NCBI GenBank assembly: GCA_963718895.1
Contig: CAVRAG010000007.1
Coordinates: 480,001 to 544,000, forward strand
Length of the DNA: 64,000 bases
From: an uncultured Nitrososphaerota archaeon
Lineage (GTDB): Archaea > Thermoproteota > Nitrososphaeria > Nitrososphaerales > Gagatemarchaeaceae
Reading direction: 5' to 3'
This document shows positions 21,817 through 39,156 of the stretch, one piece after another. The notes beneath the pieces are model-generated. The model saw nothing but the letters and a program-made list of their open reading frames with translations, searched no databases and was not told the origin of the DNA. Made by a program: the position numbers and the translations under genes. How positions within the stretch are numbered: position 1 is the first letter of the stretch; every line of letters starts with the position of its first letter.

Positions 21817-22134
21817 CTAGACCTCGACGAAAATCGCATCTTCCTCTATTTTAACGTTCAGGACGCGGAGTGGCAGCGTCGCCGGAGGGTTGTAGACCTC
21901 GCCTGTCTTGAGGTCGAACTGAGAGAGATGGAGCGTGCAGACCACGGCCCCGTCGAGGATGAACCCCTGGGAGAGGTCGTACTCCTCGTGGGTGCAGACG
22001 CCTGAGACTGCGTGGACCTCGCCATCGAGATTGGATAGCAGGACCTTCGTGCCCTCGAGCTCGACGCCGGCCATCGTGCCCGGCTGCAGGTCGGAGAGGG
22101 ACATGGCCCGCACAAAGTGGACCAGGACCTTCAC
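21817..22134 (-). CDS. Rieske-type ferredoxin
   Basis: CTH...CTLH motifs; located within the suf operon. Confidence 0.9.
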   Translation of the reverse strand: MKVLVHFVRAMSLSDLQPGTMAGVELEGTKVLLSNLDGEVHAVSGVCTHEEYDLSQGFILDGAVVCTLHLSQFDLKTGEVYNPPATLPLRVLNVKIEEDAIFVEV

Positions 22135-23554
22135 GCCCTGTACTTGTAGTGCCTCTCGAAGACGTCTCCCGATTGCCTGACCTCGACCGGTCCCTCTCCG
22201 GTGATCGCCATCAGCGCCTCCGTGTCGATGAGCCTCCTCCTCTCGCCGTACCACTTGCCCTCGATTATGAACTTCGCACCTTCACGGGCCATCTCGACCG
22301 GAATCCTGGACACGACGGGCTCGAAGAATCCGAGCACAATCATCTTCTTCGCCTCGTCTTCAGGTAGCCCCCTCGCTCTCAGGTAGAAGACCTGGTCTTC
22401 GTCGACCTGCGCTACCGAGGCCGAGTGCGTCGCCTTGACCTCGTTCGTCTCGATGTCGAGGCCAGGGATGCCGTCGGAACGGGCGCCCTTGTCCAGTAGC
22501 ATCGCGTGGTGCGCAAGATAGGAGCTGGCGTTCTTCGCAATGTGGTTAATCTTGATCATGCCCTTGAATATCGACTGTGACTCGATCCTTGAGCACGCCC
22601 CTCGCGTGAAGAGCGGCGGTGGTGTCCGGGGAGTTGTGGATGAGGTTCGACTCGAGGTCGAACCGCTGCTTCCCGTTGCAGAAGAAGACCTCAAATCCCT
22701 CGACTGTCGAGCCCCTGCCGTTGAGGTCACCATGTCCATTCGGGACCGGGAGATCGGTCGACCGCCGAGGAGGATCGACGTGATGTTTACGCGTGAGTCG
22801 CTTGAGGCGTCGACCCGCTTGTTAGTGAGATAGGTCGCCTTCTCGTCCAGGAGCTGCAGCGAGCTGGCGTCGACGTGGGAGGAGCTCCCGGCCCTGACCT
22901 CGAGCAGAGAGCTGACGAGGTAGTCATGCTCGGCCGCGCCCGTGTAGAGCTCCTCGAGGAAGTTCAACCTCGAGGTATCCTCGGCGTAGATCATCGTCTG
23001 GTCGACACGCTCGTACGCAGGGTTCTTCACTACGAGCATCTTCCGAAGGGGAGACGAGACCTCGACCCCTCGGGGACATGGATGAAAGTTCCGGAGTTGA
23101 AGAAGGCGTTGTTGAACGCCGCGTACTTCTCCCCGTTCGACTTCGCCAGCTTGTCTCGAACAGGCCTCGCATCAGGCCCTCCTTCTTGGCGATGGCGTCG
23201 TGGATGCTCATGACCTCGAGCCCGCTCTTCGCGTAGCGACTCGTCGAGGTCGACGTGGATCGTGGTCGAGTTACCCTGGAGGATGATGTTGGTCTCCTTC
23301 CCCGTGAGGTAGCCCTCGAAGTGAGTCCGGAGGTCGAGGACCTCGTTCGGGGGCGCGACCGAGAACTGCGCCGGGTCGAACGGCGGAGACCCCTGCGTAC
23401 TTCGTGTAGAGCGGGGAGAGCTCGAGAGGGAGCTTGAGGAACTCGCTGAGCGCGTCGACCCGGAAGTCCCTGAGCCAGCTCGGGCTCCTGCAGGCTCCTG
23501 GACAGAGCGATCGACCTTCTCCTCGGTGAACGCGCCCATCGTTTGCTGGGCCAT
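22131..23554 (-). CDS. sufD: SufD (frameshifted)
   Basis: YAAFNNAFF, PGLDIETNEVKATHSASV and FYLRARG motifs. Confidence 0.88.
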
Positions 23555-23581
23555 GGGAACACCTCGACTTGGCGGTGTTGT

Positions 23582-24995
23582 TTAGCCTACCGCGCCGGTC
23601 ATCTCGAGCGCCATCAGCCGGTTGAGCTCGATCGCGTAGATCATCGGGAGCTCCTTGGTGAAGGGCTCGACGAAGCCGTTGACTATCATGCTCAGGGCGT
23701 CCCTCTCGCTGATGCCCCTGGCCATGAGGTAGAAGAGCTGGTCCTCGCCGACCTTGCCGACGCTCGCCTCGTGGGTGACCGTGGCGTCGTCCGCCATGAC
23801 CTCCATGTACGGGAATGGTCGAGGTCTTCGACTGCTCGTCGAGGAGGAGCGCGTCGCACCTCACGGTGGACTTCACGTTGTGCGCGCCCCTCGCGATGTG
23901 CAGGAGGCCGCGGTAGATGGCCATCGCCTCCGTCCTTGGAGACCGACTTTGAGATTATCTTGGAGGAGGTGTCGGAGGCGAGGTGGATGACCTTCCCTCC
24001 GGTGTCCTGTATCTGGTTGGCGCCGGCGTAGGCCATCGAGAGTATCTCCGCCTTTGCGCCTTGCGCCGAGGAGGTAGATCGACGGATACTTCATGTTCCT
24101 GCCCGGAGCCGACCTCCCCGTTCAGCCAGGTGACGCTCGCGTCCTCGTAGGCGTGCGCCCTCTTCGTAACGAGGTTGTAGACGTTCTTGCTCCAGTTCTG
24201 GATCGTGATGTACCTTATCTTCGCACCCTTCTTCGCGATCAGCTCGACGACGGCGGCGTGGAGCATCGACTTTTGGTACATCGCGGCGGTGCAGCCCTCG
24301 ATGTACTGGACCTCGCTGTTCGGCTCCGCGACGATGAGCGTCCTCTCGAACTGCCCCATCCCCTGGGCGTTGATCCTGAAGTAGGACTGGAGGGGCATAG
24401 CTGATCTTGACGCCCTCCGGGATGTAGATGAAGGGACCGTCGCTCCAGACCGCGCTGTTGAGCGCGGCGAACTTGTTGTCGCTGGCCGGGACTATCGTCC
24501 CCATGTACTTCTTGATGAGGTCGGGATACTCCTTCACCGCGTTGCCGACGCTCGTGAATATGACTCCCTGCGCCTGTCAGGTCCTTCTGGAGGCTGTTGT
24601 AGACCTCCTGGCTCTCGTAGATGGCGCCGACGCCGGCGAGGAACTTCCTCTCGGCCTCAGGGATGCCCAGCTTCTCGAAGGTGTTCCTGATCTCCGGGGG
24701 GACGTCCTCCCACTTCTTCGCGGTCTCCTTCGCAGGTTGGGCGTAGTAGTAGAAGTCCTGGAAGTGTATCGGAGAGAGGTCGACCCCCCACGTGGGTACG
24801 GGGCGGGCCAGGAAGTTCTTCAGGGCCCTGAGCCTGAACTCCTCCATCCAGATCGGCTCGTCACGGATGCCGGGAGATCTCCTTGACGACGTCCTCGTTT
24901 ATCCCCTTGTGGCTGTGGTCGAGGTAGTCCGTCGAGTCGGCGAATCCGTACTTTGTCTGATAATCGTCAGAGACAATCTCGGAAGCAGATGTCAT
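23582..24995 (-). CDS. sufB: SufB (frameshifted)
   Basis: [38 protein letters not shown] and THEASVGK motifs. Confidence 0.93.
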
Positions 24996-24997
24996 AG

Positions 24998-25035
24998 ATA
25001 ACTCACATTATTACTATTGTTATAAGTATATAACA
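24998..25035. promoter_or_regulatory. AT-rich internal promoter/operator upstream of sufB
   Basis: ATAACTCACATTAT at 24998-25011 and inverted repeat TGTTATA-N4-TATAACA at 25018-25035. Confidence 0.55.
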
Positions 25036-25051
25036 CTTGCCTCTACCGACC

Positions 25052-25816
25052 CTAGGCCACCACGCCGGCTTGTTCCTTGAGCCAGCTGTACCCCTTCTCT
25101 TCGAGCTTGAGCGAGAGCTCCTCTCCTCCCGAGGCCGTTATCTTGCCATCGTAGAGGACGTGGACGAAGTTCGGCTTGATGTACTTCAGAATCCTCTGGT
25201 AGTGCGTGATTATGAGGACTCCCAACTCGCTCCCCGCAAGCTTGCTCACTCCCTCGGCCACGACGCGCAGGGCGTCGATGTCCAGGCCGGAGTCGGTCTC
25301 GTCGAGGATTGCGAACTTCGGTTTCATCAGGGCCATCTGCAGGATCTCGGCCCTCTTCTTCTCACCGCCGGAGAAGCCCTCGTTGAGGTACCTGTTCATG
25401 AAGGACTCGTCGACCCCCAGGAGCTTCATCTTCTCGTTCATCGCCTCTCTGAACTCAAAGAGGGTCGGGGCCTGGTTCTTCTCGTCGGTGTGGACAGAGT
25501 TGTAGGCCGCGCGCAGAAAGGAGAACATGGTGACGCCAGGAACTGTGACCGGGTACTGGAAGGCCAGGAAGAGTCCGCTCTTCGCCCTCTTGTCGGGGGT
25601 GTAGCCGAGGATGCTCTGGCCGTCGATCAGGATGTCTCCCTTGGTCACCTTGTACTTCGAATGCCCGAGCAGAGTGTAGGCTAGTGTACTCTTCCCTGAC
25701 CCGTTCGGGCCCATAAGGGCGTGGACCTCCCCCTGATTGATCGTCAGGTTGACTCCTTTGAGAATTTCGTTGCCCTCTATGGAGACGTAGAGGTCGCGTA
25801 TTTCCAACTTGGCCAT
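25052..25816 (-). CDS. sufC: SufC ATPase
   Basis: GPNGSGKST, FSGGEKKR and LDETDSGLD motifs. Confidence 0.96.
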   Translation of the reverse strand: MAKLEIRDLYVSIEGNEILKGVNLTINQGEVHALMGPNGSGKSTLAYTLLGHSKYKVTKGDILIDGQSILGYTPDKRAKSGLFLAFQYPVTVPGVTMFSFLRAAYNSVHTDEKNQAPTLFEFREAMNEKMKLLGVDESFMNRYLNEGFSGGEKKRAEILQMALMKPKFAILDETDSGLDIDALRVVAEGVSKLAGSELGVLIITHYQRILKYIKPNFVHVLYDGKITASGGEELSLKLEEKGYSWLKEQAGVVA

Positions 25817-26904: not shown

Positions 26905-29073
<2,169 letters not shown>

Positions 29074-31477: not shown

Positions 31478-32230
31478 TCAATCCATCACCTCTCCGCCGT
31501 CGACGACGAGGCTCTGGCCGGTGACGAAGCTCGAGGCGTCGCTTGCGAAGAAGGCGGCCACCTTCGCTACCTCCTCAGGATGGCCGAAGCGTTTGAGGGG
31601 GATGACCTCCTTGTATGACTTGGCCTGCGCCTCGGTCAGCCACTCGACCCAACCAGTCTCTATGGAACCCAGGATCATGCAGTTCACCGCCACTTCAGGC
31701 GCGAGCGTCCTCGCGAGCATCTTCGTCAGCGTGAGTACCGACGCCTTTACCGGAGCATAAACCAACCCGTCGAGGTCACCGGTAAGCACCGGCGTGGAGG
31801 CGATGTTCACGACCCTCCCGCCGCGCGCTTTCATCAGGGGGACCGACTTCTGGGTGCAGAGGAACGTGCCTATGAGGTCGACGCCGAAGACCTTCCTCCA
31901 CATGTCGACCGTGATATCCTCGAGCTTGGAGTTCCAAATCTCAGCATTGGCAAGCCCGGCGTTGTTCACGAGGACGTCGAGGCCCCCGAAATTCCCTCGT
32001 ATGGTGGCGAGCATCGCATCCACGCTGGCTGGGTCGGAGACGTCCGCCTGGACGACGATCGCCTTCCCTCCGTCCGAGATGATGGATCCTGCCACGGACT
32101 GGGCCTCGGCCTCGCTGTTCCGATGGTTCACCACGACCGTCGCTCCCTCCGCCGCGAACTTCCGTGCGATTGCGGCCCCGATCCCCCGGCTCGAACCGGT
32201 GACCAGCGCGCGCTTGCCCTGAAGGCTCAT
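31478..32230 (-). CDS. SDR-family oxidoreductase (FabG-like)
   Basis: TGSSRGIG, NNAG and YAPVK motifs. Confidence 0.93.
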   Translation of the reverse strand: MSLQGKRALVTGSSRGIGAAIARKFAAEGATVVVNHRNSEAEAQSVAGSIISDGGKAIVVQADVSDPASVDAMLATIRGNFGGLDVLVNNAGLANAEIWNSKLEDITVDMWRKVFGVDLIGTFLCTQKSVPLMKARGGRVVNIASTPVLTGDLDGLVYAPVKASVLTLTKMLARTLAPEVAVNCMILGSIETGWVEWLTEAQAKSYKEVIPLKRFGHPEEVAKVAAFFASDASSFVTGQSLVVDGGEVMD

Positions 32231-32274: not shown

Positions 32275-32784
32275 CTAGGGTCTCGGCATCCTGTCCTTCG
32301 CCGTGCCGCCGACGGAGTACTCCTTCAGGAACTTCAGGTTGAAGAGCGATGCGGCGGCCGAGTTCCTCACCAGCTCGTCCTCGTCCTTCAGCGCGGCCTC
32401 GAGGGTCGGCCTCGCGGACTGGCTGCCGATCGACCCGAGCGCCGCGGCCGACTCGTGCCTGACTATGGGCTCCTTGTCGTGCCTGACCGCCTCCTCGAGC
32501 GCTGGGACCCCGGAGGCGAGCCCCATCTGGCCTAGGGTGAACGCGGCCTCGTGCTTCACGAGCGGGTCGGGATCGTGGAGTACGACGTCAGAGAGTACAG
32601 GGACGGCCGTCTCCCCACCGAGCTCGGCTAGGATCGTCACAGCGTGGACGCGCAGGACCAGGCTTGGTTCGTTGACGAGGACGTCAACAAAGAACTGCTC
32701 GTTCTTCTTCTCATACTCGTCCTCCATCTGCTTCATCATGGCGAGGCAGTGCTTCTCGTCATCGACGACGGAGCTTGTGTACAC
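32275..32784 (-). CDS. HEAT-repeat protein resembling half of deoxyhypusine hydroxylase
   Basis: KHEAAFTLGQMG and EPIVRHESAAALGSIG His-Glu motifs within HEAT repeats. Confidence 0.8.
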   Translation of the reverse strand: MYTSSVVDDEKHCLAMMKQMEDEYEKKNEQFFVDVLVNEPSLVLRVHAVTILAELGGETAVPVLSDVVLHDPDPLVKHEAAFTLGQMGLASGVPALEEAVRHDKEPIVRHESAAALGSIGSQSARPTLEAALKDEDELVRNSAAASLFNLKFLKEYSVGGTAKDRMPRP

Positions 32785-32830
32785 GCCTCACGGCTCGAAT
32801 CTCAGAATCTTATAACCTAAACGACGGGCT

Positions 32831-34163: not shown

Positions 34164-34628
34164 TTGGCCAAGGAAAGACTTCGGATCGCGGATGCCGGCC
34201 ACAAGGGAAAAGGGGTATTCGCGACCGCAAGGATTGAACCGGGCGAGCTCGTCTGGGATTACGACGGTAAGGAACAGTGGATCTCCGAGATTCCTGAAGC
34301 GCTCTGGCAGTTTGCATTTCAAGTCGACTACGACCGGTACATCGTCCCTGAGAGGGAATCTATCGGCTGGTACCTCAACCACTCGTGCGAGCCGAACTGC
34401 GTCATTCTCGGAAGGACCAGGATAGTCGCGCTGAGCACGATAGAACCCGGAGACGAGGTCACATTCGATTACTCGACGAACGTCGGGTGGGACGGATTCA
34501 CGATGGAGTGCAGGTGCGGGGCACCCGGGTGCAGAAAGGTGGTCCGGAGCTACAGATACCTCAGCCCCGAACTGAGAGGGAGGTACGGAGCGTGCGTCTC
34601 GAGATTCCTCCTCCAGAAAGGGAGCTAG
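34164..34628 (+). CDS. SET-domain protein-lysine methyltransferase
   Basis: GKGVFA, YLNHSCEPN, EVTFDY and post-SET CRCGAPGCR motifs. Confidence 0.93.
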   Translation: MAKERLRIADAGHKGKGVFATARIEPGELVWDYDGKEQWISEIPEALWQFAFQVDYDRYIVPERESIGWYLNHSCEPNCVILGRTRIVALSTIEPGDEVTFDYSTNVGWDGFTMECRCGAPGCRKVVRSYRYLSPELRGRYGACVSRFLLQKGS

Positions 34629-34634
34629 CGAATC

Positions 34635-35396
34635 ATGCAGAAGAGAGCACTCTACTCCCAGTTGGCGCCGTACTACGACAGGATATACTGGGGCAAGGAC
34701 TATGGCAGGGAGGTAGAGTTCCTCGTCGAGCTCTTCCGCAGGAACGGGGTGTCTGGAAGACGCCTGTTGGAGGTCGGCTGCGGGACCGGCAACCACACGA
34801 AGCTCTTCGTTCGCCTAGGATATCAGGTGACCGGGGTCGACCTCAGCGAAGACGTCCTGAAGGTCGCGGCGGGGAAGGTGAGGCACGGCGCGAAGTTCAT
34901 CCGCGGCGACATGAGGGACCTCGGCTCCGCGGTCGAGGGGCAGTTTGACGAGGTCGTCTGTCTCTTCAGCACAATCTCCTACAACCTCACGAGGTCAGAC
35001 CTGAAGAAGACTTTGCGCGGCTTCTTTGACCACGTGACCGACGACGGGATCGTCGCTTTCGACACACACTTCACCAAGAAAGGGTTCCTTGACGGATATC
35101 GTGGCGAGGACATCTTCGATGACGGGAAGGTAATCGGCGCCAGGCTCAGCACCTCGAAGCGCCGCGGGGACATCGGAGAAATCTCCTTCACGTACCTGAT
35201 CAAGGACGGCCGAAAAGTGATTACGCTCAGGGATGACGTGCACAAGCTCGGGCTCTTCGTCCCCGAGGACTTCATTGAGGTTCTCAGAGATGTCGGATTC
35301 AAGACGACGGAGGCGTTCTCGGACTGGAAGTTCAGGAGAGGTAGCAACACCGCCCCATTCAAGGATACGATATTCGTGGGTCGCAAGGGCGATTAG
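34635..35396 (+). CDS. Class I SAM-dependent methyltransferase
   Basis: LEVGCGTG, GVDLS and GDMRD motifs. Confidence 0.92.
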   Translation: MQKRALYSQLAPYYDRIYWGKDYGREVEFLVELFRRNGVSGRRLLEVGCGTGNHTKLFVRLGYQVTGVDLSEDVLKVAAGKVRHGAKFIRGDMRDLGSAVEGQFDEVVCLFSTISYNLTRSDLKKTLRGFFDHVTDDGIVAFDTHFTKKGFLDGYRGEDIFDDGKVIGARLSTSKRRGDIGEISFTYLIKDGRKVITLRDDVHKLGLFVPEDFIEVLRDVGFKTTEAFSDWKFRRGSNTAPFKDTIFVGRKGD

Positions 35397-38115: not shown

Positions 38116-39156
38116 TTGGCAAAGCTGACCTTCGTCGGGCTGGGGCTCGGAGATCAGGGGGCGAGCATCGCCGCCGTCAATGCGATCACGGAGTCTGACG
38201 TCGCGTACCTCGAGTACTACACCACACCACACGCGCCTCGCCTCCTCCAGGAATTGGAGCGTGCATCAGGGCACCCCCTCACGGTGGTCGACAGGTCATT
38301 CGTGGAGGACGGGAAACGAATCCTGCGGGAGGCAGCGGAGGGGAAGGTCGTGCTCGCGGTCCAGGGAGACCCCATGATTGCGACGACCCATGGCGATCTG
38401 AGGGTCAGGGCCATCACGAACGGAATTGAGACCTCGGTGATCCACGGGACCACCATCGCTGCGGCGGCTGCGAGCGCCAGCGGCCTGCACTACTACAAGT
38501 TCGGCGCGACCGTGACGTTTACCAAAGACAGCGTAAACTATCACCAGCAGGTCTACTCGAGGGTTCACAAGAACCTGCTCGAGGGATCGCATACGCTGCT
38601 CCTTCTGGAGTTCGACACCGAGAGGGGCGAAGGCGCGAGCCCTGCATCGCTGATGGAAGGCCTCCTCGCCGCGGAGAGGAATTTCAAGAGAGAGGTCATG
38701 AGCGAGCGGACCTTCATGCTCGTGCTGAGCAGGGTGGGCACCGAGGGCGAGAGGGTCCACGCTGGGACGATCGGGGAGCTCCAGACGGTCGAGTATGGTG
38801 AGCCCCCCCACGTCGCGATCGTCCCCGGAAGGCTGCACTTCAGCGAGGCCGAGTCGCTCGCCGCGGTCTGCGGGCGGGCACAGGCGGACATCCCAGACAA
38901 TTCAGCGTCGGTGATGAGGACCGCCCAGGTGCTCGTCCCAAGGTACGCTGAAAAGGCTAAGAAGGCCCTCGGGACTGCGAGGGCCACCTTGAAGGAGGAC
39001 CACGACGAACTCTTCGAGAACAGCGAGCTCTACATCAAGGACGCCGAGAGCTTCCTTGCGAACGGGCAGGACGAGCTAGCGATGCTCAGCGTCGGATATG
39101 CCGAGGGGCTGATTGACGCTCTCACTTTCACCGGGAAGATAAAGCTGGACTGGTAG
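38116..39156 (+). CDS. dph5: Diphthine synthase fused to DUF357
   Basis: FVGLGL, GDPMIATTH, GLHYYKFG and HTLLLL motifs; C-terminal YIKDAESFL...GYAEGLIDA. Confidence 0.92.
   Translation: MAKLTFVGLGLGDQGASIAAVNAITESDVAYLEYYTTPHAPRLLQELERASGHPLTVVDRSFVEDGKRILREAAEGKVVLAVQGDPMIATTHGDLRVRAITNGIETSVIHGTTIAAAAASASGLHYYKFGATVTFTKDSVNYHQQVYSRVHKNLLEGSHTLLLLEFDTERGEGASPASLMEGLLAAERNFKREVMSERTFMLVLSRVGTEGERVHAGTIGELQTVEYGEPPHVAIVPGRLHFSEAESLAAVCGRAQADIPDNSASVMRTAQVLVPRYAEKAKKALGTARATLKEDHDELFENSELYIKDAESFLANGQDELAMLSVGYAEGLIDALTFTGKIKLDW

Follow-up and report, generated by a model that had tools for sequence, protein, structure and literature searches.

A stretch of 64,000 nucleotides from an uncultured Nitrososphaerota archaeon of the Gagatemarchaeaceae (assembly GCA_963718895.1, contig CAVRAG010000007.1, positions 480,001 to 544,000; referred to here as the window) contains on its minus strand a gene for a small HEAT repeat protein of 169 amino acids. 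A first-pass annotation of this DNA had described the product as a half-size relative of deoxyhypusine hydroxylase (DOHH), with four HEAT repeats and two His-Glu (HE) motifs, and had proposed that a homodimer of it could be the enzyme which completes hypusination of the translation factor aIF5A in archaea. The analysis presented here suggests that the protein is probably a half-size, homodimeric variant of the DOHH kind. The source organism is an aerobic, non-ammonia-oxidising thaumarchaeon; its nearest genome record is Candidatus Gagatemarchaeum stordalenia (95%), and the best 80 loci are all from Nitrososphaerales or Thaumarchaeota metagenome-assembled genomes (MAGs).

The Half-Size Gene and Its Product

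The open reading frame extends over 169 codons at 32275..32784 on the minus strand, as described earlier from the list of open reading frames and their translations, with a GTG start codon at 32784-32782 and a stop codon at 32277-32275. The gene is real and under purifying selection: the ratio of nonsynonymous to synonymous substitutions (dN/dS) against eight close homologues is 0.03-0.10, and the N-terminus YTSSVVDDEKHC is kept from the same start codon across homologues. A TATA-like box (TTATAA) was identified at 32810..32815 on the minus strand, 26-31 nucleotides (nt) upstream of the start codon. When related loci were aligned by their start codons, a TATA-like hexamer was present between -26 and -34 in all 23 of them, as it is in the window. 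This is probably the gene's own archaeal promoter, from which a leaderless or near-leaderless mRNA would be transcribed. Among public sequencing runs, seven of the DNA type and none of RNA were listed.

In Pfam, the 169-residue protein was matched by HEAT_2 (E-value 2.1e-25), HEAT_PBS (7.7e-15) and HEAT (1.1e-11), and the repeat models passed their gathering scores, with 89.2 bits for HEAT_2 (cut-off 27.7) and 54.1 bits for HEAT_PBS (cut-off 20.9). The NCBIfam equivalog cut-offs for phycobilin lyases and NblB were not reached (NblB 50.8 versus 300, CpcE 25.8 versus 330, CpcF 16.4 versus 220). The two His-Glu pairs, H78-E79 and H110-E111, are read directly from the sequence, within VKHEAAFTLGQMG and EPIVRHESAAALGSIG, so that the description as a HEAT protein of this length with two such motifs was correct. 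The count of four HEAT repeats proved roughly right. The AlphaFold2 model of the monomer, which was built on 38 homologues and reached a predicted local distance difference test score (pLDDT) of 93.1 and a predicted template modelling score (pTM) of 0.88, has nine helices, arranged as one hairpin, three full HEAT hairpins and a long last helix.

The elements of the protein, all encoded on the minus strand, follow each other as given by the helices of the model and by the alignment. The N-terminal helical hairpin (residues 10-38, 32671..32757; helices 10-25 and 29-38) contains the residues E21 and F32, which are invariant in an alignment of 38 half-size proteins. HEAT repeat 1 (residues 42-70, 32575..32661; helices 42-55 and 58-70) is without an HE motif and reads RVHAV. 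The first HE motif is located in HEAT repeat 2 (residues 74-102, 32479..32565; helices 74-87 and 90-102) in the context KHEAAFTLGQ, and the codons of H78-E79 occupy 32548..32553; the equivalents in human DOHH are H56-E57 and H207-E208, in which the His is an iron ligand and the Glu binds the substrate. HEAT repeat 3 (residues 106-131, 32392..32469; helices 106-119 and 122-131) carries the second HE motif in VRHESAAALG, with the codons of H110-E111 at 32452..32457, equivalent to the iron ligands H89-E90 and H240-E241 of human DOHH. The last long helix (residues 137-156, VRNSAAASLFNLKFLKEY, 32317..32376) is followed by a C-terminal tail (residues 157-169, 32278..32316), which was modelled with a pLDDT of 55-75 and ends with the subfamily-specific DRMPRP.

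Relatedness to Deoxyhypusine Hydroxylase

In the portions of the literature consulted, DOHH is described as a symmetrical dyad of eight HEAT repeats, organized in two four-repeat lobes in one chain (PMC8153317). The di-iron centre was reported to be anchored by H56, H89, E90, H207, H240 and E241, and the deoxyhypusine side chain to be bound by E57, E90, E208, E241 and two glycines (PMC9117371, a review of 2021; also the Leishmania paper PMC3306375). According to the portions consulted, a DOHH orthologue is not known from archaea, though some archaea contain hypusine (PMC5178350, PMC6105217, PMC8153317, PMC3306375).

In BLASTP comparisons, the window protein aligned separately with each of the two lobes of eukaryotic DOHH, with the HE motifs in register. 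For cucumber DOHH (P0293), 44% identity over 108 residues was obtained for the N lobe and 34% over 109 residues for the C lobe, and for a yeast DOHH the values were 44% over 78 and 36% over 115 residues, one stretch per lobe. Human DOHH (4d4z) was also matched in two stretches, with an E-value of 1.9e-24. By these alignments, the protein is a homologue of one DOHH lobe in which equivalents of the published iron ligands (H78, H110, E111) and substrate-binding residues (E79, and G85 as the Gly of LGQ) are present. At these five positions, no exception was seen among the 21 archaeal half-size units, the 6 units from tandem proteins, the 24 eukaryotic lobes and the 8 Marine Group II units compared.

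Like eukaryotic DOHH (yeast Lia1; EC 1.14.99.29; human 4D4Z/4D50), the window protein is built of PBS-type HEAT repeats, four to a unit, of which the second and the third carry the HE motifs. The HE-to-HE spacing is 32 residues compared to 33 in the eukaryotic enzyme, and the contexts HE(A)A(F/Y)xLGQ and VRHE(A/S)AxALG are common to both, at 34-44% identity to each lobe. However, eukaryotic DOHH has about 300 residues and two lobes, while the window protein, with 169 residues, consists of a single lobe and does not have the eight-repeat, two-lobe chain; a homodimer would therefore be needed for a two-lobe site. It also differs from eukaryotic DOHH by its own N-terminal hairpin, by a conserved C-terminal tail and by the residue three positions after the second HE motif (HE+3), which is A114. 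This position is Glu in 23 of 24 eukaryotic lobes and in 8 of 8 Marine Group II units, and the earlier remark that the Glu is replaced by Ala was accurate. The Glu (HEAAE) is conserved in eukaryotes and is not among the critical residues named in those parts of the literature that were consulted. With the eight-repeat architecture and one conserved Glu missing, the protein is not a strict member of the DOHH family.

Generic PBS-lyase-type HEAT proteins (PF03130/PF13646; CpcE/CpcF, NblB, YibA, MTH187 and the artificial alphaReps) have the same repeat type and fold, and among them the alphaReps match the window protein best, both in structure and in summed sequence score. They differ from it by the absence of the HE pair. 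In 147 generic proteins (236,307 residues), taken from the best matches among 1.8 billion representatives after the family members P0135, P0140 and P0203 had been dropped from 150, HE occupied the two residue positions concerned in 3 of 1257 repeats. In-register HE...HE pairs were absent from these proteins, and 8 out-of-register pairs occurred at that spacing. Neither the overall score against a hidden Markov model (HMM) nor the fold separates DOHH from generic repeats; the HE motif is the discriminating signal.

Half-Size Subfamilies and Tandem Proteins

A word-indexed search identified 635 homologous proteins at E ≤ 0.001. The best 120 of these have 153-174 residues and are 64-93% identical to the window protein, and the named ones are from Thaumarchaeota or Nitrososphaerota. 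Automatic annotation already hints at a DOHH identity of some members: 12 of the best 120 bear the JGI product name "deoxyhypusine monooxygenase", and one Atlas cluster name contains "DOHH". Conservation of the HE motifs in homologues, which the first-pass annotation had set as a test, held throughout, since both motifs are present in 121 of 121 close homologues and the pairs H78-E79 and H110-E111 are invariant in 38 of 38 diverse half-size proteins. The alignment of the latter covers four half-size subfamilies with identities down to 36%, and its invariant columns include H78, E79, A80, F82, G85, Q86, V108, R109, H110 and E111.

The other half-size subfamilies are of the same length as the window protein and have the N-terminal ME..F/Y..F hairpin, the invariant HE pairs and LGQ in common with it, while they are 36-55% identical to it and have C-terminal tails and gene neighbourhoods of their own. 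The tails are conserved per subfamily, as DRMPRP in that of the window, KMPHP, KPKIRL, and ARKTGG or RMTGG, that is (K/M)TGG. The (K/M)TGG tails were found in ammonia oxidisers and in the families f13 and f32, the PKIRL tails in Bathyarchaeia MAGs, and MPHP in another subfamily.

A full scan of the 1.8 billion representatives returned mostly giant multi-repeat HEAT proteins. It also yielded another two half-size relatives and the 363-residue protein P0140, in which two such units occur naturally in tandem, with four HE motifs. A search with P0140 led to further half-size subfamilies, to the four-HE proteins P0279 and P0289, and to eukaryotic DOHH sequences. The N-terminus of P0140 has a hydrophobic stretch resembling a signal peptide or membrane anchor, which is odd for a cytoplasmic translation-factor enzyme.

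Phylogeny and the Marine Group II Relatives

Trees were calculated from hand-picked rows, comprising 17-21 archaeal units, 24 lobes from 12 eukaryote-type proteins and the 20 generic proteins that had the highest domain scores; P0358, with one unit only, was left out. In a maximum likelihood tree of 67 units and 108 columns (IQ-TREE), the 20 generic units split off with an ultrafast bootstrap support (UFBoot) of 96, and in a FastTree calculation with 79 units, to which Marine Group II and more archaeal units had been added, 59 of 59 HE-bearing units fell into one clade with a support of 1.0. Both trees thus place the half-size units in the DOHH clade, apart from the generic repeats; they are to be read with the small number of generic units and columns in mind, with the HE motif columns contributing to the signal and the root not being secure.

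Within the 67-unit tree, the N and C lobes of eukaryotes group together in a single clade (UFBoot 99). The proposal that the half-size protein represents the form before duplication fits this tree, but is not proven by it, as the root is uncertain. For the tandem proteins P0140, P0279 and P0289, the two halves of each are mutual closest relatives, with supports of 98, 99 and 97, which shows that the fusion occurred several times.

Half-size proteins of 159 residues with two HE motifs were also identified in Marine Group II (Thermoplasmatota), which likewise are aerobic archaea, and these proteins belong to the same HE clade. In databases they are named "HEAT repeat" or "PBS lyase". They differ from the window family in being 50-56% identical to cucumber DOHH (P0293) and in keeping the HE+3 Glu, and they fall within the eukaryotic clade (EUK+MG2, support 0.81), while the window family forms a separate, more distant branch and is absent among the best 120 matches of a search with plant DOHH. 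The Marine Group II proteins are either the result of a half-gene transfer from a eukaryote or close to the ancestor. The 159-residue proteins (P0465, P0479, P0495, P0498 and P0506) start with SVDPAPP, a motif that in eukaryotic DOHH lies in the linker before the C lobe, and one of them is labelled Woeseia sp., a bacterial bin.

The Predicted Homodimer

The suggestion that the protein forms a homodimer was supported in silico. For two chains together with two Fe, pairing was predicted with a score of 0.86 (0.83, 0.86 and 0.87 in the individual runs), while the highest-scoring of three controls reached 0.14. The HE motifs are located at the predicted interface. At least 80% of the contacts were in common between the runs, and the pLDDT of the partner was at least 87. 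Of 30 proteins solved as one-chain pairs, 20 reached the mark set for a homodimer, compared to 1 of 23 solved single-chain proteins; these counts hold only roughly here because a custom alignment and a ligand were used. The model supports binding and does not prove it, and resemblance to the solved DOHH structure could have raised the score.

According to the complex model, every repeat would contribute its inner helix to the interface, with E79, I107 and H110 among the residues involved, and further contacts would come from the hairpin at the N-terminus, the last helix and the tail. The hairpin, with interface residues 6-24, is predicted to lie against the partner's last helix, which with residues 138-156 makes up a large share of the predicted interface, and residues 165-169 of the tail would contact the partner subunit. 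As the genome of the window contains a single HEAT_PBS gene, any pairing of this kind must be with itself. Independently of the complex model, the natural tandem fusions point to pairing of half-size units. An AlphaFold2 model of P0140, calculated as a stand-in for the dimer geometry, had a pTM of 0.49 and matched 4d4z_A poorly, at a TMq of 0.33 and a root mean square deviation (rmsd) of 12.4, which does not speak against the pairing.

Occurrence, Oxygen, and the Hypusine Pathway

The distribution of the gene was analysed in a genome sample of the phylum, in which a match at E ≤ 1e-20 was taken as presence, and in a more even sample of the order. By family of the phylum sample, it was found in 54 of 56 genomes of f2, in the single genome of f3, in both genomes of f4, in 10 of 17 of f13 and in 2 of f32, and it was not found in the large families f11 (0/32), f15 (0/25) and f14 (0/23). 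COX1 of the haem-copper oxidase is encoded by 70 of 70 gene-positive genomes of this sample compared to 83 of 331 gene-negative ones. In the order sample, it is encoded by 33 of 34 gene-positive genomes, and none of the 12 genomes of the four families without any COX1 contains the half-size gene. The co-occurrence with aerobic lineages, which had been named beforehand as a check, was thus supported in both samples. As relatives are not independent, this link amounts to a handful of lineages and is not a statistic.

The genome of the window encodes deoxyhypusine synthase (DHS), 68 kb from the half-size gene, and an aIF5A with the loop SKPGKHGSAK. A second DHS paralogue (G000:C7:275413-276271; L002/L003) was matched by Pfam in two pieces, 2-211 and 202-287, in different frames, which may be due to a frameshift or an assembly error. 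In the genus g98, the half-size gene and a DHS gene are divergently oriented and 76 bp apart, and another DHS paralogue adjoins the first (locus L116, 2026-4542; genome G201). This arrangement is kept in the other sampled species of the genus (L132, G381), in which the DOHH-like copy has a TAG stop and matches the first 100 residues only. Adjacency of DHS was observed in none of the 80 Nitrososphaerales loci, none of 29 short loci of the ammonia-oxidiser type, none of five further f13/f32 loci and none of 80 metagenome loci of the TGG subfamily (median length 6.2 kb). Adjacency to DHS or aIF5A as a general rule was therefore rejected, with DHS adjacency being limited to g98.

Genomic Neighbourhood

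Directly downstream of the half-size gene, at a distance of 44 nt, a gene for a short-chain dehydrogenase/reductase (SDR) is located on the same strand (31478..32230; Pfam adh_short_C2, 7.2e-58). Past the SDR gene follow genes for a mevalonate-pathway decarboxylase, DUF371 and katG, and a DUF4443 gene lies upstream of the half-size gene. The SDR gene is directly downstream in 60 of 80 related loci and in 0 of 29 loci of the ammonia-oxidiser type, for which flanks of 1.5 kb only were available. SDR, decarboxylase and DUF371 accompany the half-size gene in 56-60 of the 80 related loci and are missing beside it in the ammonia-oxidiser-type genomes, so that their company is lineage synteny. On this ground the SDR was rejected as a functional partner of the half-size gene, which it probably is not.

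The katG-type catalase-peroxidase gene (Pfam peroxidase, 721 residues) occupies 26908-29073 on the plus strand of the window, and a cluster for Suf iron-sulfur assembly (SufBD core twice, ABC ATPase) occupies 22131-25816 on the minus strand, both in the 3-10 kb range from the DOHH-like gene. They are consistent with an aerobic, iron-using organism. On the other side, a small SET-domain protein of 154 residues is encoded at 34164-34628 (plus strand), followed by a class I methyltransferase at 34635-35396. Another translation-factor-modifying enzyme, the diphthine synthase Dph5 (TIGR00522, 186.5 bits compared to a cut-off of 114.3), here fused to a C-terminal DUF357, is encoded 5.3 kb from the DOHH-like gene at 38116-39156 (plus strand).

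In metagenome loci of the marine and freshwater ammonia-oxidiser type (L159, L171, L172, L187, L190 and L209), a divergent open reading frame of about 220-243 residues was found upstream of the half-size gene, which was AhpC/Redoxin-like in the four loci scanned with Pfam (L159, L171, L172 and L190). A gene for ribosomal protein L15e lies near the DOHH-like gene in L159, and in the genus g27, CGI-121 and Sua5 are encoded upstream of it.

Possible Functions of the Half-Size Protein

With a little less than even confidence, we favour the view that the gene codes for one lobe of a DOHH-type homodimeric di-iron enzyme, with deoxyhypusine-aIF5A as the likeliest substrate. Two identical subunits of 169 residues would come together at their concave faces, each binding one iron through H78, H110 and E111. 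In eukaryotic DOHH the oxygen-activating di-iron centre lies between the N and C lobes, and the dimer would reconstitute such a centre. E79 and G85 would be part of the lining of the substrate pocket. There, the conserved lysine of aIF5A, carrying the deoxyhypusine side chain, would be converted to hypusine by hydroxylation. There is a fair likelihood that the half-size protein works like DOHH, and it can be considered a candidate hypusine hydroxylase for aerobic Nitrososphaerales only, and not the general archaeal DOHH.

A number of observations weigh against this assignment. In overall sequence and fold, the likeness to DOHH is not above that to generic HEAT proteins: with the family profile, eukaryotic lobes obtained per-domain HMM scores of 52-85 bits compared to 30-85 bits for the best generic HEAT proteins. 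With VIA-align, the monomer model matched alphaReps with Z-scores of 18-20.6, CpcE with 16.1 and YibA with 14.5, while 4d4z_A followed at rank 30 with 13.6 (rmsd 3.8 over 144 residues), so that the lobe is nearer in fold to an idealised alphaRep (Z about 20) than to a DOHH lobe. Comparison of the monomer by Foldseek or VIA-align was accordingly discarded as a test for DOHH, as an artificial alphaRep outranks DOHH and the fold cannot discriminate. In addition, the HE+3 position is Ala, Val or Ile in 21 of 21 archaeal half-size units like that of the window. The occurrence of the gene is patchy: it is present in 70 of the 401 genomes sampled from the phylum, and in 34 of 61 genomes and 7 of 20 families in the order sample; oxidase-bearing families without the gene exist, for example f22 (COX1 in 15 of 15 genomes). 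Some family members are from MAGs of Bathyarchaeia, which are usually regarded as anaerobic. The DHS adjacency in g98 represents a single evolutionary event, suggestive only, and does not serve as general support. Among the control genomes, HEAT_PBS was matched in B. subtilis, Synechococcus, H. volcanii and M. acetivorans, and no match was obtained in Sulfolobus acidocaldarius or M. jannaschii. For S. acidocaldarius and other Crenarchaea, hypusine is reported in the part of the literature consulted (PMC5178350), and the half-size family therefore cannot be the Crenarchaeal hydroxylase.

The literature on archaeal hypusine that was consulted contained no statement on hypusine versus deoxyhypusine in Thaumarchaeota, and papers on deoxyhypusine together with Nitrososphaera or Marine Group II mentioned DHS only. 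In the literature from 2022 on, judged largely by titles and including a portion of PMC11819603, no archaeal DOHH came up, and no paper describing the half-size family was found, as judged partly from titles. Taken together, the observation made in the first-pass annotation stands, as do the homology to a DOHH lobe, the homodimer in silico and the link to aerobic lineages. The claim that this is the enzyme which completes hypusination in archaea fell, given its presence in 70 of 401 genomes and the lack of a HEAT_PBS match in S. acidocaldarius.

The main rival, which we regard as possible but rather unlikely, keeps the homodimeric HE-HEAT di-iron oxygenase and assigns a different substrate to it, such as another aminoalkylated lysine, a polyamine-type group, or a quinone or isoprenoid intermediate. 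The hydrophobic residue that replaces the HE+3 Glu of eukaryotes and Marine Group II in all 21 units would alter the charge of the concave face, and the N-terminal hairpin and the conserved C-terminal tails, both absent from eukaryotic DOHH, would also suit another substrate, as would the patchy spread of the family and its absence from archaea reported to make hypusine. The lineage neighbours, an SDR and a mevalonate-pathway decarboxylase, point in the same direction, but the SDR synteny is limited to one lineage. A link of the half-size family to the futalosine pathway is unsupported, as MqnA/D were found neither in the window genome (80.5% complete) nor in five family genomes (two of them 100% complete), all six of which carry the half-size gene, and in six ammonia-oxidiser-type genomes the MqnA/D and half-size genes are more than 280 kb apart. 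Moreover, the published residues binding the deoxyhypusine side chain are all kept, and the only functional neighbourhood beyond lineage-wide synteny is the one with DHS.

An improbable explanation is that the protein serves as a non-catalytic HEAT scaffold or adaptor of the PBS-lyase/alphaRep type, in which the His-Glu pairs would be used for protein binding or a structural metal and no oxygen chemistry would take place. Such a role would agree with the results from Pfam and NCBIfam, which give generic HEAT families only and place NblB, CpcE and CpcF far under their cut-offs, with alphaRep binders as the best structural matches and with the HMM scores, which fail to separate DOHH from generic repeats. 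However, a scaffold function hardly explains why four charged or metal-binding residues are invariant down to 36% identity, at positions which are hypervariable in generic repeats. It also leaves unexplained the restriction to oxidase-bearing genomes and the common clade with a proven di-iron enzyme.

Implications for Hypusine Formation in Archaea

The half-size family represents a clonable candidate, and cultured ammonia oxidisers carry the gene. It is conceivable, if somewhat doubtful, that aerobic archaea, namely Nitrososphaerales, the families f13 and f32, and Marine Group II, make true hypusine with a homodimeric half-size DOHH that is the pre-duplication ancestor of the eukaryotic enzyme. 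If this were so, deoxyhypusine hydroxylation would have arisen in oxygen-respiring archaea before eukaryotes, and the tandem fusions in P0140, P0279, P0289 and eukaryotes would replay one step. For the hypusine of Crenarchaeota another enzyme is still needed, since the half-size family is missing from Sulfolobus. An active half-size protein would show how HEAT repeats of two identical chains can form a di-iron site between them, and it would mean that the last step of hypusine formation in some archaea is the eukaryotic one. It would also resemble the ancestor from which the eukaryotic enzyme would have arisen by tandem duplication.

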